Below are positions 16,028 to 37,004 of a stretch of DNA of 64,000 nt, piece by piece. The position numbers and the translations under genes were made by a program. Numbering within the stretch: the first letter of the stretch is position 1; each line of letters begins with the position of its first letter. The stretch comes from Patescibacteria group bacterium (GTDB taxonomy: Bacteria; Patescibacteriota; Minisyncoccia; Phycocordibacterales; EsbW-18). The stretch covers positions 19,195 through 83,194 of the forward strand of contig JBBTTA010000002.1 of assembly GCA_038064475.1 (NCBI GenBank), given 5' to 3'. A model generated the notes under the pieces. That model was not told the origin of the DNA, did not search any database, and was given only the letters and a program-made list of their open reading frames with translations.

Positions 16028-17710
16028 CTAGAGCTCCTGCGGTTCTGGTGCGACAGGTGCCGCTGGTGTTCGTCGCTCACGAATAGTGCGAACAATTTCA
16101 CGAAGTTCAGTACTTTTGAGCATTTTCAAAACAAGAACACCGACAACAATGCCGATAATGCCGGCAATAAGACCTTGCGTGAACACACGTGCGACTGTTT
16201 CAAGACCAAGTGTTGGGCCAATCATGTACAACACCATGTACGCCGCAAAGCCGGCAAAAACCGATGCAGAGAAACTGTGCCACACTGTGTCATACAAACG
16301 TGATGGCAAATGCCCACCAAAATCTTTTCGAAAGAGAAACCAGAACGCGAGTGCGTTTACAATCATGCCGATAGAATATGCAAGTGGTAGCATGAGTATT
16401 GAAACACCGGCAACATCTTCAACACGGAACAATGACTCGATGAAATAACGGAATGTTTCTGATGCCGCAAATACATGTGTTAACGAGTAACCAAGAACAA
16501 CAATACCAATTGATGAAATCGTGTTGATCAACAATGGTCGAAATGTTTTGCCCGCGGCGTAGTATCCGCGCACGAACACCAACATAAGACTGTGCGCAAT
16601 CAAAGAAATAATGAAGAGGGCAAGTGCTGCAGCGGTCAAACGAGTGTCTGCCCAATCAAACGCGCCCGCACCGAGAAGTGTTCGAACAATGTGTGCACGC
16701 AAAACGATAATGAGCGCAATCGCAGGAAACGACCAAAACACAATGTGCCGCACTGCTGTAAGCATTTGATCAATAAATGCTTGCCGATCACCGTTTGAAA
16801 AAAGTCGTGCTAATGTCGGAAATGCCGCAATAGAATACGAAACACCAATGATAGAAAGCGGCGCAGTGTTAATGTTCGACGCAAAATTAAACACGGTGAT
16901 TGAACCTTCTTCCATTGTTGACGCGATACCAACAAGCACAAGCAATGCCAGTTGATTAAGTGCAAGTGTCACCGTGCGTGGAACTGAAACCAAAACAAGC
17001 GCTTTCAATTCGTGCCACGGCAAGTGAAAACGCAATGTTGGCATCAAACGCTCACGGATAACTGTTGGCATCTGAATGAGGGCGTGGAGAACTGATCCCG
17101 TGATAACTCCCCATACGAGGCCCTGCATGCCAAAACGTGGGTACAAAAAGACAACACCCATGATTATGCCAACGTTGTAGAGGATTGGTGAAAGTGCATA
17201 CACAAAGAAGCGCTGCGCAAGTTGGGTAACACTCGCAAAAATATTTGAAATGCCTAGGATAATCGGCGAGAGAAGCAGAATGCGCGTGAGCATAACAAGC
17301 ATCTCATGTTGTTCTCCAACAAATCCGGGATAGAGTGTTGTCGAAAGTTCAGGAACAAAAAACCACACGATTGCCGTCACGACACACATGAAGCCAACAA
17401 ACGCGGTCGATACACTTGAGAGGAAGGCTCGCGCATTCTCGCGCGTGCCGTCAGCCATCTTTTCAGAGAGAAAGGGAATGAGCACGAACAATGACACAAG
17501 CGAAGCAATTGCCGCGAAGAGAAAGTCTGGTATACGAAATGCCGCGTAGTAGATATCGAGCGTTTCCCCTGCGCCGAACATCCCTGCCAACATGCGGTCG
17601 CGCACAAGGCCGAGCAATTGTGACAAAAAAGAAAAGCCCGCAATGATATAGGCCGCCTCGTGAAGTCCTTCAACTTTTGAGGACAATAATGAAATAAACC
17701 TCTTTACCAT
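16028..17710 (-). CDS. murJ: Lipid II flippase MurJ/MviN
   Basis: Multi-pass membrane protein (~14 TM). The N-terminal region AAFRIPDFLFAAIASLVSLFVLIPFL matches the MurJ signature. Confidence 0.8.
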   Translation of the reverse strand: MVKRFISLLSSKVEGLHEAAYIIAGFSFLSQLLGLVRDRMLAGMFGAGETLDIYYAAFRIPDFLFAAIASLVSLFVLIPFLSEKMADGTRENARAFLSSVSTAFVGFMCVVTAIVWFFVPELSTTLYPGFVGEQHEMLVMLTRILLLSPIILGISNIFASVTQLAQRFFVYALSPILYNVGIIMGVVFLYPRFGMQGLVWGVITGSVLHALIQMPTVIRERLMPTLRFHLPWHELKALVLVSVPRTVTLALNQLALLVLVGIASTMEEGSITVFNFASNINTAPLSIIGVSYSIAAFPTLARLFSNGDRQAFIDQMLTAVRHIVFWSFPAIALIIVLRAHIVRTLLGAGAFDWADTRLTAAALALFIISLIAHSLMLVFVRGYYAAGKTFRPLLINTISSIGIVVLGYSLTHVFAASETFRYFIESLFRVEDVAGVSILMLPLAYSIGMIVNALAFWFLFRKDFGGHLPSRLYDTVWHSFSASVFAGFAAYMVLYMIGPTLGLETVARVFTQGLIAGIIGIVVGVLVLKMLKSTELREIVRTIRERRTPAAPVAPEPQEL

Positions 17711-17802
17711 ACCGTGATGTCTTCTATTGTAGCAAAAAACACAAAACTCCGCGGTAGCGGAGTTTCATGATAGGTCTTGTATCGATAAGCCGAATTCTGT
17801 AT

Positions 17803-17835
17803 CCAGCTCCAGTTTTTTCAAACTGGGGCTGGACG
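17803..17835. repeat. Hairpin module CCAGCTCCAGTTT-tttca-AAACTGGGGCTGG, copy 1 (P18 position of rnpB)
   Basis: 13-bp stem with one G-U on the plus strand (C-A on the minus-strand RNA). Four copies in the window. Confidence 0.6.
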
Positions 17836-18066
17836 ACAGGCATCTATCTGGGATGAAAATTACTTTTCACCTCAAGCGGCACTTCTAACGTAAATCAAAG
17901 ACTAACGTTAGACTCGGCCTTGCACGTAGATAAGGATTTTGCCGTTTCACCTCTCATGTCACCATGGGAGTTCACCTCACCGAAGCGAGGGCCAAACTTC
18001 TTTCGTTGTTTGGCGTCACTGTTCGCACCTCTATGCTTGCGCACGACGGGTGTTACCCGCTACCGT

Positions 18067-18102
18067 CCTCCAGCTCCAGTTTTTTCAAACTGGGGCTGGA
18101 CG
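18067..18102. repeat. Hairpin module copy 2 (between P4 and P7 of rnpB)
   Basis: Stem identical to copy 1 and extended by GTC/GAC. Confidence 0.6.
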
Positions 18103-18119
18103 TGTTCGGACTTTCCTCA

Positions 18120-18148
18120 CCCAGCTCCAGTTAAAAACTGGGGCTGGG
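18120..18148. repeat. Hairpin module copy 3 (P3 position of rnpB)
   Basis: CCCAGCTCCAGTT-aaaa-AACTGGGGCTGGG. Confidence 0.6.
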
Positions 18149-18195
18149 CGCGCCTGTCTAATACAAGGTGAATATACTATACCCTATTTTTCGAC

Positions 18196-30288: not shown

Positions 30289-30636
30289 TTGTTAATAGCT
30301 CAAAAGGCTACCATTTCTAATATGGCCATTACTCTAGCCCAATTCAAAGCATCACTTGGCAAACTTGCCGACGGTCTCTCCGACGAGGAGATCCAAAAGA
30401 GGCTCGATTTTACATACCGATTTGCGGAGGGATTTTATGAATGGTTTTCGGTAAGGAAAGGCACCGGGGTTGAAGCAATTACCGGTGCATATGTGAATGA
30501 TGCGATGGCAGATAGTGAGCGTGATGCTGTACGAATAAAGGCAATGAGAAAGGCCGTGCATCTTTTGCCGGAAGCAGATGCAGAGTTAAAGCAAGAAGCA
30601 AAGAAACATGAACAAAGATACCCCTACAAAAACTGA
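30289..30636 (+). CDS. Hypothetical protein (115 aa) immediately upstream of, and overlapping, the recombinase gene
   Basis: Complete ORF. Possible accessory or directionality factor, by position only. Confidence 0.4.
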   Translation: MLIAQKATISNMAITLAQFKASLGKLADGLSDEEIQKRLDFTYRFAEGFYEWFSVRKGTGVEAITGAYVNDAMADSERDAVRIKAMRKAVHLLPEADAELKQEAKKHEQRYPYKN

Positions 30637-32377
30637 TGAGCCGCTCGGGATTGGAGAGACACGGGTAAGTGATACTCGCCAGTTAGATGGCTCGCATGAG
30701 TTTCAAGAAAGCGAAATCAGAAGATTTGCCGCCAATCTTAAAATTGAAATAGCGGCAGATGGCTTTTGGAGCAATACAGTTAAAGGAGACAGCGACGAGC
30801 GGATGACAATGGCTACTGCGCTTGCGTATATTGATGAAAGAATAAAAAACAACAAGCGTCGTGTGACGGATTATTTTTGTTATAACATTGAGCGCTTCAC
30901 TCGTGGTGGACATGCTATGTATGACTTTATGAAAGGCGAGTTGAAGAAACGGGGAGTAAGGATGAGAGATGTAGCAGGAATCATCCAGCCGGATAAAAAT
31001 ACGATGGAAAACTTGGGTATGGATTACAAATGGAGTAACTATTCACCCAGTGGCACTCAAGAGTTGCTTGAAGCAGATAGGGCCAAAGACAACAGACGGG
31101 ACATGCTTACTCGCATGATTGGACAGGAGGTCATTAACGCTCGTCAGGGTTATGCGGTGCACCCTGCACCTGATGGAATGATAAACAAGCGTGACCGCTA
31201 TCACTCTGAGGGTAAACGTAAGCGCCGGTCAACCCGTTATCGAGATCCTGAACGTGCTCCTTTCTACGAAAAAATGTTCAAGCTACGAGCGGAAGGGCAA
31301 ATGTCCGACGAAAAGATAGTGGAAGAAATAAATAAGGATGGCTATCTCTCCAAAGTCCGAACACGCTGGAGTAAAGACAGCAAGACGGAGATCGGATACA
31401 CCGGCGGTATTCCACTTACGGTAAAACAATTACAAGCAATTATTCAACGACCCATATATGCTGGGGTCAATTACGAGGTATTTACGCTCTGGAAACCAGT
31501 AAGGGCTGTTTACGCTGGCTTGGTGGAGATTGATAGATGGAATAAAGCAAATCGTGGCAGATGGTTTATTGAGGAGTTGCCCGACGGGCTATTGCAGATG
31601 CACCAGAACTATAATCCGGAGATACGGACACGAGATAACGAGCAGTACCCCTTCAAAGACGTAATCCTCTGCACTTTTTGCAAGGAATTAGAGGGAAAAG
31701 AGCGGCCATTTCGAGGCAGTGCTTCTCGAAGCAAGAATGGTAATCATTATCCCGCCTATCATGCTGACCATAAAATAAACGGAGTCAGACACAAACGAAT
31801 CGGGGTTAATAAACATGTCTTCGAGAAGCAGGTTGAGGAATTCGTAACCGATCTACAGTTTCAGCCAGAACTGTTGAAGAGCTTTCAATTGGTGCTCATG
31901 GATACATTCAACCAGAAGCAGGCAGGCACTATTGAGGCGGCCACCGGTGCAGAAAAGAGGGTTATCGATCTACAGGAACAGAAGCAGGCGGCTACCAAGG
32001 CCTATATTGCTGCCAATGCTGTTGGTGACGAAGACCTGATGAGCGACATCAAGGCAGAGCGAACTCGATTGGACCAGTTACTAAAGGTCGCCCAGGGTCA
32101 CAGAGATGAACTCGAGGTGGATGAGAGGGATTTGGACGAATTCGTGTGGCGAGTGAACTGGGTGATGGAACACCCCCATGAATTCCTATTGCGTGCAGGT
32201 AGCAAACAACAAAGACGAGCTTACTTCTCGCTCATGTTTGATGAGTTACCAACCTACCAAGACGTATTAGATGGAACACCAAAATTGTCTTGGATTTTCA
32301 GGCTGGATTCGGAAAAACTCCCTGAAAAAGGGTCTGAAAAAAGTTTGGTGCGCCGGGGAGGATTCGAACCTCCGTAG
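30608..32377 (+). CDS. Large serine recombinase (integrase)
   Basis: Resolvase catalytic region GETRVSDTRQ (Ser nucleophile). ERFTRG matches the DRLGR-type motif. KKRGV. Long C-terminal recombinase/zinc-ribbon region with Cys/His cluster CTFCKE...HYPAYHADH. Its stop overlaps tRNA-Tyr by ~30 nt. Confidence 0.75.
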   Translation: MNKDTPTKTDEPLGIGETRVSDTRQLDGSHEFQESEIRRFAANLKIEIAADGFWSNTVKGDSDERMTMATALAYIDERIKNNKRRVTDYFCYNIERFTRGGHAMYDFMKGELKKRGVRMRDVAGIIQPDKNTMENLGMDYKWSNYSPSGTQELLEADRAKDNRRDMLTRMIGQEVINARQGYAVHPAPDGMINKRDRYHSEGKRKRRSTRYRDPERAPFYEKMFKLRAEGQMSDEKIVEEINKDGYLSKVRTRWSKDSKTEIGYTGGIPLTVKQLQAIIQRPIYAGVNYEVFTLWKPVRAVYAGLVEIDRWNKANRGRWFIEELPDGLLQMHQNYNPEIRTRDNEQYPFKDVILCTFCKELEGKERPFRGSASRSKNGNHYPAYHADHKINGVRHKRIGVNKHVFEKQVEEFVTDLQFQPELLKSFQLVLMDTFNQKQAGTIEAATGAEKRVIDLQEQKQAATKAYIAANAVGDEDLMSDIKAERTRLDQLLKVAQGHRDELEVDERDLDEFVWRVNWVMEHPHEFLLRAGSKQQRRAYFSLMFDELPTYQDVLDGTPKLSWIFRLDSEKLPEKGSEKSLVRRGGFEPP

Positions 32378-32432
32378 CCACAAGGGCGCTTGATTTACAG
32401 TCAAGTACGTTTGACCGCTCCGTCACCGACGC
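32346..32432 (-). tRNA. tRNA-Tyr (GTA), type II with long variable arm, CCA encoded
   Basis: Reverse complement: GCGTCGG-TG-ACG-GAGCGGTCAAA-CGT-A-CTTGA-CTGTAAA-TCAAG-CGCCCTTGTGGCTAC-GGAGG-TTCGAAT-CCTCC-CCGGCGC-A-CCA. Confidence 0.85.
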
Positions 32433-32496: not shown

Positions 32497-32580
32497 TTGA
32501 CAGAGAAGAATCGTTTGCTACCATTAGGGCATACCTACGAAAAAGACCCTTACAGAGTTCCGTCTCTGTTGGGGGCTTTT
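32497..32580 (+). ncRNA. Promoter-sRNA-terminator module 1 (sRNA ~55 nt)
   Basis: TTGACA-N16-TACCAT, then transcript ...CCUACGAAAAAGACCC + hairpin CCCTTACAGAG-ttccgt-CTCTGTTGGGGG + CUUUUC. Paralogous to the modules at 34809 and 34925. Confidence 0.35.
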
Positions 32581-32614
32581 CATTTCTTCGAGAAAAATTA
32601 GATAGCGTCACCCA

Positions 32615-33040
32615 CTACAGTGGTGCGACGAGGAATGTTACAACGTATTCTTCAGGCGTAATAACAACAGTTGATCGAGGGGCTGGAAGCACTTCGTTAA
32701 TCGAAATCGCATAGCCGTCATATTCAAGCGTAAGATCATTTGAGTTAATGTCCTGAGTTATCTGCGTATCTGTTTTGACTGTAATATTTGCAGTCACCCA
32801 CCCCGCTTGCACACATTGTACATCCACAGCACAACGGTTATCTGAAACAATGGAATTCAAAGTGATTGAAAGGTTTCCTGAATTTTTTGTGTCACCCACA
32901 GAGAGCGGCAACTCCTCTGGCCCACGAACACGCCCATTGTCTGTTACGTCTGCCTCGTCTGTTTTGTCTGTATAGTCTAGTACGTAGTATCCACCGATAA
33001 GAACAAGTGCAATAACAAGTACAAGAAGTACATTTTTCAT
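32615..33040 (-). CDS. Hypothetical secreted protein (141 aa)
   Basis: Signal peptide/TM MKNVLLVLVIALVLIGGYYVL. Complete ORF. Confidence 0.45.
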   Translation of the reverse strand: MKNVLLVLVIALVLIGGYYVLDYTDKTDEADVTDNGRVRGPEELPLSVGDTKNSGNLSITLNSIVSDNRCAVDVQCVQAGWVTANITVKTDTQITQDINSNDLTLEYDGYAISINEVLPAPRSTVVITPEEYVVTFLVAPL

Positions 33041-33118
33041 AAAGAATACGTTAAGACTAGTAACCCCTTACTGCCCTAGTATACCATTTGCCGTAACAGA
33101 GCCGTTTTTTGCCCCAAC

Positions 33119-33162
33119 AAAAAACTATTCTCTAATTCGTGCGAATTAGAGAATAGTTTTTT
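33119..33162. terminator. Perfect 21-bp-stem hairpin AAAAAACTATTCTCTAATTCG-tgc-CGAATTAGAGAATAGTTTTTT
   Basis: Read directly. Bidirectional A/T tracts. Confidence 0.5.
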
Positions 33163-33414
33163 ATCTGTCCGCCAGCCGGCGGTTTTGTCATTTGTTTCCT
33201 CTCTTCCTACAAGCTAAAAAGCTAACGAAGCTACAGGCTAGCTTCTCTATTTCCCTTTCTTCCCTCCTGCCATTCCTCGTCGTGAATTAGGATTTTGACG
33301 AGGTGCGCGCGTCAGGTGCATCTTCTCTTGCATATTCTTCCTCTTATCCATTGGCGCCTGCTTCCCTCCTGATTTTTGTTTGTTGATACTGCTCATATGT
33401 TAAGTGTACACCTC

Positions 33415-33933
33415 TTAGTTATTCCCTGTTAATGCGTTTTGTATTTTTGTTCTTACACTTTCCAAATCTTGTAGTTCAGGTGTTTTTATATGAAGAATAG
33501 GGATTTCTGCACCATTGAGAATGTGGTTTACCACTACGTCTCGTTCTTGTCGGTCAGGTCGCTCATGGGACTTGTCATCAAGCTCGATGGCTAGTTGAGG
33601 TAGAAAGCTAATCTTGTCACACAAGACGAAATCAACAGATTTTTCATCAATGTGCCTGAAAGCACCAAACCAATTTTGTCCGAGTACTTTATGGTCGAGA
33701 ATTGTTGCGAGGTGGATTTGAGGAAAAACGTCGTACCGAGCACCAACCAAAGCAAGAAGTATCTTAAAACACTCTTGTTCCGAGGCAGTCATAATTATCT
33801 TTTTTTTGTACTGATATTCTCTGCGTTTTGGAAATTTCCAATCAACCAACACACCAAGAATCGCGAAAAGAACAATTATAAATATTCCCCAAAAAAGAAA
33901 TGGCTTTATGAACTCAAAAAGGTCTATACTCAT
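33415..33933 (-). CDS. DUF2726-family (NERD/PD-(D/E)xK-fold) protein with N-terminal TM
   Basis: Pattern ECFKILLALVGARYDVFPQIHL...VDFVLCDK...LAIELDDKSHERPDRQERDVVVNHIL matches DUF2726. Confidence 0.5.
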   Translation of the reverse strand: MSIDLFEFIKPFLFWGIFIIVLFAILGVLVDWKFPKRREYQYKKKIIMTASEQECFKILLALVGARYDVFPQIHLATILDHKVLGQNWFGAFRHIDEKSVDFVLCDKISFLPQLAIELDDKSHERPDRQERDVVVNHILNGAEIPILHIKTPELQDLESVRTKIQNALTGNN

Positions 33934-34366
33934 ACCCCCATTCTACCACCCACCCCCCACGCCTGTTTTTGAATCTGGTATGAAAAAGGCGTGCACACCG
34001 AAGTGTGCACGCCTGAGGTTTTGCCCGTTAGGGCTTGGGGTCCCACGGCATCTTGATGTCGAACCCGCCCGGGATTCGAACGGTCGTGTGGCCGCCCTTG
34101 AGCGTGCCGTCGGGGTTCACCCCGAAGGTGTCGTGGAGGTCGCCTGTGCCGGTCGGAGAAGGTCCGATCGGTTGGATCCCGAAGTCGCTGGGCTTGGTGG
34201 GATTCCCGAGAGGGATGAACGGCTTGAATTCGTCGCTCATACTACTTTCCTTTCTGGAGCAATGCTCCGAAGTGCTTCTGTCTATATAATAACAGACATT
34301 TTAAACATTGACAATAGTCTGAAAAACAGTACTTTATAGGAAGAAGTAAAACGACAAGGGGGTTAT

Positions 34367-34663
34367 ATGAGCGACAACTTTCTGAGCAGGGATGAATGCG
34401 TTTGTGGCGCAAGTACATCAGTGTGTGGGGGGCGAATTGTCTTTGACCACGCAACTCACCGAGGGAGGATTTATCACGAGAGGTCAAAAGACCACGTCTT
34501 GAGATCAGAAATGTCGGAAACGTGGGTATGCTCCCGCTGTGGTAGATACAGCGGGTCGTGCGAGCCGGACGAACCTCATCTGTGGTATTGCTCCACAGAT
34601 TTGTGCAATCGTTGCAAAAGACCGAGCTACAATTGCGGGTGCCATGTTGGCGAGCCATACTAA
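34367..34663 (+). CDS. Cys-rich putative zinc-binding small protein (98 aa)
   Basis: Multiple CxxC pairs (CVCG...CGG, CSRCG, CNRCK...CGC). Confidence 0.4.
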   Translation: MSDNFLSRDECVCGASTSVCGGRIVFDHATHRGRIYHERSKDHVLRSEMSETWVCSRCGRYSGSCEPDEPHLWYCSTDLCNRCKRPSYNCGCHVGEPY

Positions 34664-34721
34664 TCTCAACGCGTTATCGCTTCCAATTTTGGAGGCGATT
34701 TTTTTAATCAAACAAAAAACC

Positions 34722-34747
34722 GCCCGCCTTGGCATGCCAAGGCGGGC
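34722..34747 (-). terminator. Hairpin GCCCGCCTTGGCA-TGCCAAGGCGGGC, U-tract on minus strand
   Basis: Perfect 13-bp palindrome. The plus strand has the A-run before it. Confidence 0.45.
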
Positions 34748-34808
34748 CCCTGCGTCAGTTTCGTCTCTGCCGGAGGCTTTTCATTTATATAAAATCCAGA
34801 TAAGAGAC

Positions 34809-34905
34809 CCTTTGACAGCTACATCGGATAGAATATACTTATACTAAGATCACGAATGGAAAAGATCACCCTACAAGGTTTCGTCCTTGTGGGGCCTTTT
34901 CTTTT
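34809..34905 (+). ncRNA. Promoter-sRNA-terminator module 2
   Basis: TTGACA-N16-TATACT, transcript AAGAUCACGAAUGGAAAAGAUCACCCUACAAGG-uuucgu-CCUUGUGGGGCC + UUUUCUUUU. Confidence 0.35.
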
Positions 34906-34924
34906 AAAGTTTAGATAAAATAAT

Positions 34925-35015
34925 CCTTGACAGGAAAAAAGTAGGTAGTACCATAGGCCTATCACGAACAGAAAGAGTGCCCCGATGAGGTTTTGTCCTC
35001 ATCGGGGTCTTTCTT
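34925..35015 (+). ncRNA. Promoter-sRNA-terminator module 3
   Basis: TTGACA-N16-TACCAT, transcript CCUAUCACGAACAGAAAGAGUGCCCCGAUGAGG-uuuugu-CCUCAUCGGGGUC + UUUCUUUUUU. Confidence 0.35.
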
Positions 35016-35544
35016 TTTTCTCAACCTTATTTCTGCTATCACCAACAAATCTGGTGTATGACAAAAAATCCGTGCGCTTTAAAAGTCCGGAATATTTTTT
35101 CCTATTTGGAACCATTAGTGCAAGGAGCTTCTTTTGGCTAAGCAGATAATCAACAAGACAATAAAAATCGCCATCCCCACTAACGATAAGGATTTTTTCA
35201 CAGTCATTGATGTGAATCATCGTATGCAACACCAGTTCTGCATCCACGTTTCCCTTTATCTCTCCATCTGGTATTTCAAATGTTGGCTTAAAAATACAAA
35301 TATAGCCGTTTTTCTGAAGATATTTATATAACCCTTCATTGCCTTTTACATATCCAATACAAAGAAAAGCTTTTTCAATTGAATATTTATCTTTGAGGTA
35401 GACACGGAACCGCGCAAAATCTAGTTTCCAACCTTGTTTTTGAACTCCAAGATTTAGATTCTGACTATCAATAAAAGCAAAGTTGTTCGCTCGCATCCAA
35501 CAATCGTACTCTGCGGAGCTAAAGAAAATATAAAGATTTCTCAA
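34999..35544 (-). CDS. NYN/LabA-like (PIN-fold) ribonuclease domain protein
   Basis: AFIDSQNL, GNVDAELV and the hallmark LIVSGDGDF. TTG start at 35544, or internal ATG. Confidence 0.65.
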   Translation of the reverse strand: MRNLYIFFSSAEYDCWMRANNFAFIDSQNLNLGVQKQGWKLDFARFRVYLKDKYSIEKAFLCIGYVKGNEGLYKYLQKNGYICIFKPTFEIPDGEIKGNVDAELVLHTMIHINDCEKILIVSGDGDFYCLVDYLLSQKKLLALMVPNRKKYSGLLKRTDFLSYTRFVGDSRNKVEKKERPR

Positions 35545-35550
35545 AACAGC

Positions 35551-35583
35551 AAAAAGAAAAGGCCTCGCGTGAGCGAAGCCTCT
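35551..35583 (-). terminator. Intrinsic terminator GGCUUCGC-UCAC-GCGAGGCC + UUUUCUUUUU (minus strand)
   Basis: Read directly. It ends the upstream ORF-free region just before the NYN gene. Confidence 0.5.
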
Positions 35584-36252
35584 TCAGTATTGCGCCGCCG
35601 AAGCGGGTGATACTGGAAAAAGAACTGGTGAGTCTATGACTGACCTCGTGAGCGTACTCTCGAGGATAGACTGAAGCGTTGGGAACGTTGAGCGGGGCCT
35701 ATCGCTCTAAGATGATTTTTTCGCATCGCGACCGAAGTCGTGAGCGTCGTCCTGGGTTGGACCTCATCTGTTCCCTACGAGTCTCGCTGGAGGGCGAGAC
35801 CATTACCGAAGATTTCATTGAACCGAAGTTCGCTGAAGTTCTTCGTTTGCCTGTAAGACGATGGCCGTTCCCGAAGGATTGGTATCGCTGTGTGATGTGT
35901 AGAGGATTTTGAGTTCTCATAACACCACACAAGAAAGTTTTCGATTTCACCGCCGAAGCGACGAAGTGCTAGGTCCGAAATCTCTCCCCGGTGCATTGGA
36001 ACTGAGTTTCCCGTTTTACCGAGTTACTCTCCCATGTTCCCTTGGCTTTTACACGTTCGCTTCGTACAACCTCCGTTGTCGATTGAGGTAAGCGATCCCG
36101 CGGAGGGTTCGCACACATCTCGTCGATTTTCGGAAGCTTCCGTTGCGGCTTTGGGGACGACATGCACTGCCGTATCCCCTATCCGTGTGGTCGTCGCACG
36201 TCAGGCGATCAAATTTCCCTCGCGGGAGTCCGATTGCCAGTGCGCTCTAACC
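35584..36252 (-). ncRNA. Candidate large structured non-coding RNA (~0.7 kb; up to ~1 kb if it extends to 36580)
   Basis: No ORF of >=100 aa on either strand over ~1 kb. The minus strand has six C(UUCG)G tetraloop motifs at plus-strand CCGAAG positions 35586-35950. Candidate promoter TTGACA-N16-TATACT on the minus strand at 36260-36287. Terminator at 35551-35583. No family assigned. Confidence 0.3.
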
Positions 36253-36587
36253 TACCGAGGAGTATACGCGAAATGTATCCATTGTCAATTGGTTGGATAA
36301 TTTCTAAATAAAAATAACATCACGTCAAATCACCACTCCCTTCTTCTTTTGAAAAACACAGAACCTATCAGCTGATAGGTTCTTCCGTACAGCGCCGTCG
36401 CGCTTCCCGGGGTTTTTCAAAAAAGAAGAAGCTCGTTTCCACGTTATACATATAAAATCGAGATAAAAAGATGTTTGACAATAAACCAGAGAAGACTAGA
36501 CTATACTTACAAACCAAACGGCTTCGGCCTTCCCCACAAGGGATACAATGGGGTTCATAAGAACTCTCCCCGTAAGGGGTTACAAAG

Positions 36588-36619
36588 AAAAACTCATGCA
36601 AACAAATGCATGAGTTTTT
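36588..36619. terminator. Perfect palindromic terminator AAAAACTCATGCA-aacaa-TGCATGAGTTTTT overlapping the last codons of the MazF-like gene
   Basis: Read directly. T-tracts on both strands. Confidence 0.55.
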
Positions 36620-37004
36620 CTTTTATATTTTCAAAATCCTCTTGCGAAATATTTCCAATTTTATACTTAAAGCGCCTTACATCTATAAGTCGGATTTGCG
36701 AAAGAATTGCGTTATTTAAAACACCATTTAGAAATAAAGAAAAATAGAAAGGGCCTTTCTTGATTTGTTTTGTTACTGGTACACAAACACATACATTACG
36801 ACCGAATTTTTTAATCACAATGATTGGGCGTAAAAACTGCTCTCCTTTTCCATCTTGTTCATGACCAACATTCACACCAAGTGCACACCACCAAACCTCA
36901 CGTTCATGAAAGAACCGAGTGTTCTCCTGAAAATGAATATCTTTTTTCACTAGGTTCCATCCATCAAAATTCTTAAATATCATTCCTATATGGTATGACA
37001 TCAC
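36594..37004 (-). CDS. MazF/PemK/Kid-family endoribonuclease toxin-like protein
   Basis: EREVWWCALGVNVGHEQDGKGEQFLRPIIVIKKFGRNVCVCVPVTKQIKKGPFYFSL...AILSQIRLIDVRRF..KIGNISQEDFENI follows the PemK pattern (RGdiw.vdl...G.E..k.RP.lVis...vPlTs....p..v.l...g....S.vl.dqirtidk.Rl). No antitoxin ORF is evident upstream. Confidence 0.6.
   Translation of the reverse strand: MMSYHIGMIFKNFDGWNLVKKDIHFQENTRFFHEREVWWCALGVNVGHEQDGKGEQFLRPIIVIKKFGRNVCVCVPVTKQIKKGPFYFSLFLNGVLNNAILSQIRLIDVRRFKYKIGNISQEDFENIKEKLMHLFA

Follow-up and report, generated by a model that had tools for sequence, protein, structure and literature searches.

A 64-kb stretch of a Patescibacteria group bacterium genome (GenBank assembly GCA_038064475.1, contig JBBTTA010000002.1, positions 19,195 to 83,194), referred to below as the window, carries three short promoter-hairpin modules, named M1, M2 and M3, and one gene for an NYN-domain protein, a PIN-like RNase, which M3 meets tail to tail (Table 1). 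Each module consists of a near-consensus promoter, a purine-rich 5' tail that starts with AUCAC or AUACC about 7 nt past the -10 hexamer, a GC-rich hairpin of 11-12 bp with a 6-nt loop, and a U tract. M2 and M3 stand in tandem but form two transcription units and belong to different subtypes. The stop codon of the NYN gene (TCA on the plus strand, 34999-35001) lies inside the 3' stem arm of M3, and the last ~19 nt of the coding sequence together with the 3' end are antisense to M3. M1 converges on a gene of 141 aa (32615-33040, minus strand), not on an NYN gene. Directly ahead of M2 lies a truncated copy that is 87% identical to 32556-32585 of M1; it has no hairpin fold (z +0.3) and gave a partial match of 12.9 bits with the covariance model described below.

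Table 1. Positions in the window of the three modules, their parts and the NYN gene (sRNA, small RNA; all sRNAs are predicted).
Feature	Position	Strand	Description
M1, whole module	32497-32585	+	promoter through U tract
M1 promoter	32497-32524	+	-35 TTGACA 32497-32502, spacer 16 nt, -10 TACCAT 32519-32524, TG directly 5' of the -10
M1 sRNA	32531-32585	+	subtype A, orphan; tail AUACCUACGAAAAAGA; inferred transcription start near A32531
M1 hairpin	stem 32547-32557 / 32564-32574	+	loop UUCCGU 32558-32563; U tract 32577-32585
Truncated relic, subtype A	34757-34786	+	loop, 3' stem arm and U tract kept; without promoter or 5' arm
M2, whole module	34812-34905	+	promoter through U tract
M2 promoter	34812-34839	+	TTGACA-N16-TATACT, 11/12 match
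M2 sRNA	34846-34905	+	subtype C, orphan; tail (AA)GAUCACGAAUGGAAAAGAUCA; tandem, upstream of M3
M2 hairpin	stem 34869-34878 / 34885-34894	+	loop UUUCGU; U tract 34897-34905
M3, whole module	34927-35019	+	promoter through U tract
M3 promoter	34927-34954	+	TTGACA-N16-TACCAT
M3 sRNA	34961-35019	+	subtype B, predicted partner of the window NYN gene; tail AUCACGAACAGAAAGAGUG
M3 hairpin	stem 34980-34990 / 34997-35007	+	loop UUUUGU; U tract 35010-35019
NYN gene	34999-35496	-	PF01936, PIN-like RNase, 165 aa; only NYN gene of the window

The pattern TTGACAG-N15-TAYMMT, equivalent to TTGACA-N16-hexamer, was found exactly three times in the 64 kb against 0.14 expected, and the three sites are the promoters of M1-M3, located where a first-pass annotation made from the sequence had placed them. 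With 5 sites against 12 expected, TTGACAG itself is under-represented, and the modules account for three of these sites. The promoter-like sites score 10-11 of 12 with a spacer of 16 nt. The stems and loops drawn in the same annotation were also correct: the predicted folds are far more stable than those of shuffled sequences (z -2.7, -3.8 and -6.2), with a stem stability of -18 to -30 kcal/mol and ~20 nt preceding the stem. The 5' block that it gave for M1, AUCACGAA, was corrected to AUACCUACGAAAAAGA. The block GAAA(A)GA that it described as shared is present, but it base-pairs with the 3' U tract in the predicted folds, so that part of it is the A-tract of a two-way terminator and not a motif in its own right. 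A covariance model, R1, built only from homologues in other organisms, recovered M1 (65.1 bits, E 1e-11), M3 (38.7 bits, E 3e-6) and M2 (33.2 bits, E 5e-5), with no other significant match in the window. A search for complementary targets had been suggested as well; the complement of the 5' tail gave 8 matches in the window at up to 3 mismatches against 1.9 expected, and apart from the reverse strand of M1 itself, those inspected were coding-like and without module features. Exact CACGAANNGAAA sites in the window, at 17003 and 43365, are likewise coding-like sequence without module features.

Homologues were collected by two scans. The first, in which the promoter was part of the pattern, covered one genome per species and returned 11 matches, 5 of which were true homologues carrying ATCAC, CCC, a paired stem and GGGGGCUUUUU, none of them required by the pattern. 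The five metagenome-assembled genomes are labelled Komeilibacteria, Spechtbacterales, Saccharibacteria, 'Gammaproteobacteria' and plain 'bacterium', and all five were taken by us to be Patescibacteria. The second scan covered metagenome contigs with the promoter-free pattern TCACYACGAAAAAGACC-N14-34-GGGCTTTT and yielded at least 120 loci; among the matches listed, 120 of 120 were true modules. This pattern fixed the tail and the stem base, where conservation is uninformative in that set, and tail conservation was judged from the first genome scan and from loci selected by protein similarity. The metagenome loci include near-duplicates, and distinct sequences were counted where needed (98 RNAs and 108 upstream regions).

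A promoter matching TTGACA-16/17/18-TATAAT at 9-12 of 12 positions was present in 104 of the 108 distinct upstream regions, with the -10 element 11-12 nt before the Y of YACG in 99 of them; shuffled upstream controls mostly scored 7-8 of 12. As the promoter is conserved without being part of the search pattern, it is integral to the unit, and transcription is predicted to start at the A of AUCAC. The possibility that the modules are terminators with chance promoter-like hexamers, which the first-pass annotation had named as an outcome that would overturn it, was thereby excluded, and its proposal of stand-alone promoter-sRNA-terminator genes was upheld by this promoter and by a hairpin that covaries on the plus strand. 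The comparison confirmed M1-M3 as independent genes for small RNAs of ~55-60 nt, the expression of which is predicted.

The covariation was measured on an alignment of 98 distinct homologue sequences (A2), which is also the basis of R1. Compensatory double changes were found in 8 of the 11 pairs of the stem (163 cells), and 92.5% of stem cells are paired, compared with 79% after shuffling and 41-66% when the partner was slid; none of 500 shuffles reached any of the observed covariation measures. Two irregular positions are conserved: the fourth pair is a U.G in 78 of 98 sequences, and the fifth is a non-pair, mostly UxC, in 69 of 98. G.U or U.G cells number 138 and A.C or C.A cells 6 (36 and 5 without the two odd positions), indicating that the plus-strand RNA is under selection and not the complementary hairpin ending the convergent mRNA. 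Two further structures were considered and dropped. A pseudoknot of 3-6 bp between tail and loop (ACGAA with UUCGU) would have a 5-nt linker, too short for the 11-bp helix; the invariant tail gives no readable covariation, and the loops vary (UUCCGU, CUCGU, CUGU, AUACGU). A short 5' helix in subtypes B and C (CAC..GUG, GAUC..GAUC) is out of register between the subtypes and absent in A.

The pattern ACGAAAAAGACC-N-GGGCTTTT gave 15 matches in viral contigs, all unrelated, 12 of them being one conserved phage stretch. For the modules, Rfam 15 returned no family for the whole window at the gathering score, for the region at E<=10 or for the five homologous loci; the sole match at E<=10 was a chance one to WsnRNA59 (17 bits against 49). 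The literature searched, on NYN, on non-coding RNAs of the candidate phyla radiation (CPR), on COG1432/LabA and on solitary MazF, contained no description of this RNA. The putative module RNAs thus form an undescribed family, very common in Patescibacteria (CPR).

The window NYN protein matches PF01936 with 43.2 bits against a gathering cut-off of 24.2 (E 7e-11), and PDB entry 2qip with E 1.7e-6. Linkage between module and NYN gene was assessed in both directions. Downstream sequence of at least 450 nt was available for 106 modules, 80 of which face a convergent NYN gene with its stop codon at -45 to +131 nt relative to the module end; for 77 of these genes the range narrows to -45 to +17 nt, and so mostly to the inside of the hairpin. 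NYN is the one recurrent neighbour of the modules (86 loci; the next protein cluster, 5), and there is therefore no candidate protein antitoxin. In the reverse direction, eight homologues of the window NYN protein (61-77% identity) were picked solely by protein similarity, and each of the eight loci has, convergent to the NYN gene and overlapping its 3' end, a unit of promoter, AUCACGA tail, hairpin and U tract. In the 80 linked NYN proteins, the median pairwise identity of which is 60%, the acidic PIN/NYN motifs IDxxNL, KGNCDAxLV and SxDGD are retained. This reciprocal linkage to a convergent RNase gene that has no protein partner lends comparative support to the earlier suggestion that the RNAs may be antitoxin-like, in which NYN had not been picked out as the partner and M1 and M2 had not been recognised as orphans. 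Module-NYN cassettes were found among RelB/RelE, HicAB and MazF genes, and some are inserted in housekeeping operons. At one such locus (L160, 2717-5081) an NYN gene, a subtype-C RNA, RelB and APH-family genes stand between rplB and rpsS, so that the ribosomal-protein operon is interrupted and the NYN gene is antisense to it.

A separate observation concerns the NYN 5' ends: many of the genes (loci L032-L151) lack a Shine-Dalgarno sequence and have a TATAAT-like box only 7-12 nt ahead of the ATG, which suggests leaderless NYN mRNAs opening with A-rich Lys/Glu codons. A CRISPR-associated bacterial NYN protein was described as a robust, sequence-nonspecific, Mn-dependent single-stranded RNase (bioRxiv 10.1101/2024.04.08.588522), and the function of bacterial NYN/COG1432 proteins is listed as unknown in a survey of the PIN superfamily (PMC5499597).

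The modules had been described at first as paralogues. The three are indeed related, but they are not simple paralogues, as each belongs to a separately conserved subtype. Subtype A, the window copy of which is M1, has the 5' tail AUCACYACGAAAAAGA and GGGGGCUUUUU after the stem and accounts for at least 125 further scan matches. Subtype B (M3) has the tail AUCACGAACRGAAAGRGUG and GGGGUCUUUCUUUU after the stem and was found convergent to NYN homologues at four other loci (L152, L154, L157 and L169). Subtype C (M2) has the tail AUCACGAAUGGAAAAGAUCA and GGGGCCUUUUCUUUU after the stem; RNAs nearly identical to M2 are convergent to NYN genes in L160 and L077, and a close variant occurs in L168. A strong promoter, the 5' AUCAC..GAA motif and a purine tract are common to all subtypes. 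The apical RGG-UUYYGU-CCY is found in most of them, and the 5' motif is kept even where the top of the hairpin differs (L166, L167). Each RNA subtype has a separate NYN clade as its partner; the window NYN protein is 41% identical to a subtype-A NYN. By this correspondence, M3 is the predicted cognate RNA of the window NYN gene, with M2 and M1 as intact orphans and 34757-34786 as a decayed copy.

Orphans are frequent in the family. About one quarter of the subtype-A modules have no NYN gene, and their sites are varied, including the secY-adk interval (L104) and a position beside dnaK (L086). The promoters of orphans score 10.2 and those of linked modules 10.36 of 12 (p 0.54); only this promoter comparison is unbiased, because an intact RNA body was required by the search pattern. 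Orphans nearly always lie antisense in co-directional gene runs, with 19 of 23 downstream and 20 of 21 upstream genes on the other strand, which is the remnant expected after a co-directional NYN gene is lost from the cassette. An antidote that outlasts its poison is an expected fate of toxin-antitoxin pairs. M2 and M1 would most simply be what is left of cassettes that lost their NYN genes, and they may still give protection from matching NYN nucleases.

Predicted convergent RNAs of other sequence occur next to further RNase genes. Divergent NYN paralogues (L041 3765-4289, L016 2143-2652, L134 300-911 and L057 8314-9060) have at their 3' ends a convergent TTGACA-N17-TAnnnT promoter, a short hairpin RNA and a U tract, and these RNAs are unrelated to the AUCAC family. 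In the window, a solitary MazF/PemK-like gene (36594-36983, minus strand), for which no MazE-like gene is present, is faced by a convergent unit at 36475-36630 (plus strand) with the promoter TTGACA-N16-TAGACT at 36475-36502. The RNA of this unit (36508-36630) would be ~120 nt long and structured (minimum free energy -45.8, z -7.3), and its two-way terminator overlaps the MazF stop codon. Three MazF homologues (L161, L163 and L164; 49-55% identical), solitary and located between housekeeping genes, all have a convergent RNA (3/3). The shared core of these RNAs is AUGGCUUCGGCC-UCCCCGYAAGGGG-UAA..terminator, with no Rfam match. The MazF-convergent RNA is a candidate second RNA-antitoxin family, and a MazF-like gene with its own convergent sRNA offers an analogy for the pairing of NYN gene and module.

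From the observed gene anatomy, conservation, covariation, selected strand and reciprocal linkage, we infer that the RNA is expressed, that the NYN protein is toxic and that the RNA restrains this nuclease by a neutralising mechanism. The reading in which the modules encode an antisense RNA antitoxin, or regulator, of a solitary NYN RNase toxin is held with moderate confidence, the general antitoxin claim included. A strong sigma-70-type promoter would start the sRNA at about the A of AUCAC, and its own U tract would end it. With the sRNA gene placed tail to tail with the NYN gene and the hairpin DNA shared, the 3' end of the NYN mRNA would be the perfect complement of some 45-60 nt of the sRNA. 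The abundant sRNA would pair with this 3' end through a loop-loop contact and its free 5' tail; pairing would remove the protective 3' hairpin, for example through RNase III cleavage of the duplex, and the nuclease would be kept low. If the cassette or its transcription were lost, the nuclease would be made and the cell would arrest. The tail-to-tail overlap is kept even with unrelated RNAs, as in the NYN paralogues and MazF, which argues that complementarity to the mRNA 3' end matters. In subtypes B and C the minus-strand side of the terminator has no good U tract, and the NYN transcript probably reads on there, in which case it would contain the full complement of the sRNA including the free 5' tail.

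Several points weigh against an antisense antitoxin. The 5' AUCACGA, the apical RGG-UUYYGU-CCY and the U.G and UxC of the stem are kept across subtypes, although a pure antisense RNA needs no conserved primary sequence; in the large metagenome set, the conservation of the tail was imposed by the search pattern. The existence of intact orphans implies that the RNA acts in trans. The toxins of classical type I systems are small membrane peptides and not enzymes of 165 aa. Proteins of PF01936 are also without an established toxin role (PMC5499597).

The architecture of the pair was compared with known toxin-antitoxin systems. The closest is the par locus of the Enterococcus plasmid pAD1, a type I system made of the Fst toxin mRNA, RNA I, and the antitoxin RNA II. 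Its antitoxin RNA of ~65 nt has its own strong promoter, is convergent and shares a bidirectional intrinsic terminator with the toxin gene, and the terminator loop is the first contact point. The par toxin is a membrane peptide of 33 aa, whereas the partner here is a ribonuclease of 165 aa; the 5' direct repeats of par reach the toxin ribosome-binding site (RBS), whereas no such repeats were found in the modules, only a weak A/U-rich match; and the two have no sequence or Rfam similarity. A par-like second contact between the sRNA U tail and the NYN start was considered (-5.45 against -4.22 kcal/mol for control genes, p 1e-5), but the difference is small, A-rich N-terminal codons account for it, and it was not counted as evidence. 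The txpA/RatA and bsrG/SR4 pairs of Bacillus subtilis are similar in having convergent genes with overlapping 3' ends, and their antitoxins are thought to trigger decay of the toxin mRNA from its 3' end via the duplex. However, these antitoxins are 180-220 nt long, overlap their toxin genes by 75-120 nt and control small hydrophobic peptides, whereas the module RNAs are of ~55 nt and have an enzyme as partner; unlike the module RNAs, they are also not known to be conserved in primary sequence across phyla. SymE/SymR and RalR/RalA are precedents for an antisense-RNA antitoxin acting on a nuclease toxin, although SymR overlaps the symE 5' end and RBS, RalA acts in trans with Hfq, and the folds and RNAs are unrelated to those of the NYN-module pair.

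An opposite-strand RNA gene overlapping or adjoining the nuclease gene, as in type I systems, is present at M3, in 80 of 106 modules and in all eight loci of the reverse test, and the partner is an NYN domain above the gathering score with its acidic PIN-like motifs conserved in 80 homologues. The hydrophobic membrane peptide of <60 aa that is the usual type I toxin has no counterpart: the partner is a soluble nuclease, and no small hydrophobic open reading frame (ORF) is conserved. The pair would thus be a variant of the known RNA-antitoxin systems and not a member of an existing family, as judged against Rfam 15 and the searched literature.

Alternatively, the sRNA might act as in type III systems (ToxIN, CptIN, TenpIN), binding the NYN protein as inhibitor or pseudo-substrate, with the convergent placement serving only for co-inheritance; this is regarded as rather unlikely. 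The likeness lies in an endoribonuclease toxin, a small structured RNA as neutraliser and the lack of a protein antitoxin, all of which the candidate pair would share. The AUCACGA(A) at the 5' end of all three subtypes, which persists where hairpin and loop differ, the non-Watson-Crick features of the stem and the conserved apical GG..GU CC fit this alternative, as do the intact orphan genes, which would probably act in trans. None of these is needed for cis-antisense, which suggests recognition by a protein, most simply NYN. NYN proteins with the same tail are ~60% identical (median), and those of subtypes A and B 41%; the single-stranded AUCACGA tail beside a hairpin also resembles the 5'-flap substrate of a PIN-like nuclease. 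On the other side, the antitoxins of known type III systems form arrays of direct tandem repeats that precede the toxin gene in the same operon and transcript, with a terminator between, and their units are cut by the toxin. Here one RNA unit, begun and ended by a promoter and terminator of its own, lies past the 3' end of the nuclease gene on the opposite strand, without a co-transcribed repeat array upstream, and the nuclease differs from type III toxins in its NYN/PIN-like fold. A protein-binding RNA also needs no shared terminator, yet the overlap is universal and extends to NYN and MazF subfamilies with unrelated RNAs. Antisense and protein-binding mechanisms are not exclusive, and the antisense mechanism is ranked first and direct binding second.

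A wider form of the protein-binding idea holds that a class of RNA antitoxins is pervasive in Patescibacteria, in which dedicated convergent RNAs of ~55-120 nt, each transcribed separately, would neutralise solitary RNases (NYN, MazF-like) by direct binding. We consider this generalisation doubtful. If true, the RNA would bind the nuclease via its conserved 5' motif, AUCACGA for NYN, the systems would constitute a fourth, architecturally distinct 'type III-like' family, a first function would be assigned to bacterial PF01936/COG1432 NYN proteins, and the orphan RNA genes would be immunity against incoming cassettes.

The modules could instead encode a general trans-acting RNA of Patescibacteria at the terminator of which mobile NYN cassettes land or persist. 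Such an insertion preference would account for the quarter of copies that are orphan, some in housekeeping operons, for the variable offsets between NYN stop and hairpin, and for the truncated relic beside M2, a sign of rearrangement at such sites. It appears improbable, as RNA subtype tracks NYN subtype, distant NYN paralogues own unrelated convergent RNAs and all eight NYN homologues have the module; nor did the search of the 64-kb window yield a tail-complementary target beyond chance coding matches.

That the unit is only a two-way terminator with an outward-guarding promoter, the short RNA being a functionless by-product of insulation or transcriptional interference, is very improbable. 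An A-tract, hairpin and U tract do make a bidirectional terminator, and a convergent gene is faced by 19 of 23 orphans and 83 of 84 other modules, but the plus-strand fold is selected (the G.U excess over A.C given above), subtypes B and C have a poor minus-strand U tract, a 9-nt 5' motif outside the terminator is conserved, and the promoter is held at near-consensus strength and at a fixed distance. A conditional terminator, that is, a riboswitch or protein-controlled attenuator releasing a long antisense transcript over NYN on a signal, is extremely improbable, for although the promoter is aimed into the NYN gene, M2-M3 are arranged like tandem attenuators and the tail ACG could pair with the loop YGU, no alternative (anti-terminator) fold and no Rfam riboswitch match was found, the next downstream gene is on the opposite strand in 102 of 107 modules, only ~20 nt precede a very stable stem, and the tail-loop pairing shows no covariation and would need its short linker to span the whole helix. 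An integron attC site or a miniature inverted-repeat transposable element was rejected, as the units have a promoter and lack terminal inverted repeats, target duplications and any link to a recombinase, and so was a tRNA link: M1 adjoins tRNA-Tyr, but homologous loci have no consistent tRNA neighbour.

An antisense antitoxin or regulator would offer a testable partner and role for bacterial NYN/COG1432 nucleases. It suggests that bacteria with reduced genomes may control solitary RNase toxins (NYN, MazF-like) by convergent RNAs and not by protein antitoxins, and standard annotation of toxin-antitoxin and defence genes would miss such cassettes. Small RNAs of CPR bacteria are essentially unexplored, and this family appears to be abundant and easily recognised (>120 copies). 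Its lineages, as labelled, are Saccharibacteria, Komeilibacteria and Spechtbacterales, and the partner NYN proteins occur also in Parcubacteria groups, e.g. Zambryskibacteria and Kaiserbacteria. As conserved multi-copy sequences, the 60-nt modules could also serve as recombination anchors in accessory regions.

Other elements were noted in the window. Upstream of the NYN gene, ~700 nt (35550-36290, minus strand) hold no convincing ORF and are flanked by a strong minus-strand promoter (36288-36261, 11/12) and a terminator (35585-35556). The predicted fold is -264 kcal/mol against -223 kcal/mol for shuffled sequence (z -5.5) and has many C(UUCG)G-type loops. Rfam gave no match at E<=10, nor did blastn against about 1 Mb of other CPR loci. 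The region may be a large structured RNA of a new kind.

On the other side of the modules, a 589-aa ORF with a serine-recombinase 'Recombinase' domain (30608-32432 region) runs into the 3' end of tRNA-Tyr (32346-32432, minus strand), and to its left lie HU-like, TIR/ThsB-like and DnaA_C/sigma-r4 genes, as seen in L001. The region looks like an element integrated at tRNA-Tyr; M1 lies opposite to it, on the 5' side of this tRNA. The sequence at 33119-33162 is a perfect inverted repeat of 21 bp and a two-way terminator. Three independent assemblies with the same DUF2726 gene (L002, L003 and L004) end ~284 nt past the gene, at this repeat, which suggests an assembly break or strain-level variation there. 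The class A RNase P RNA of the window (17772-18167, minus strand) barely passes the Rfam gathering score (102.3 against 100), and this low score fits a divergent Patescibacteria genome.

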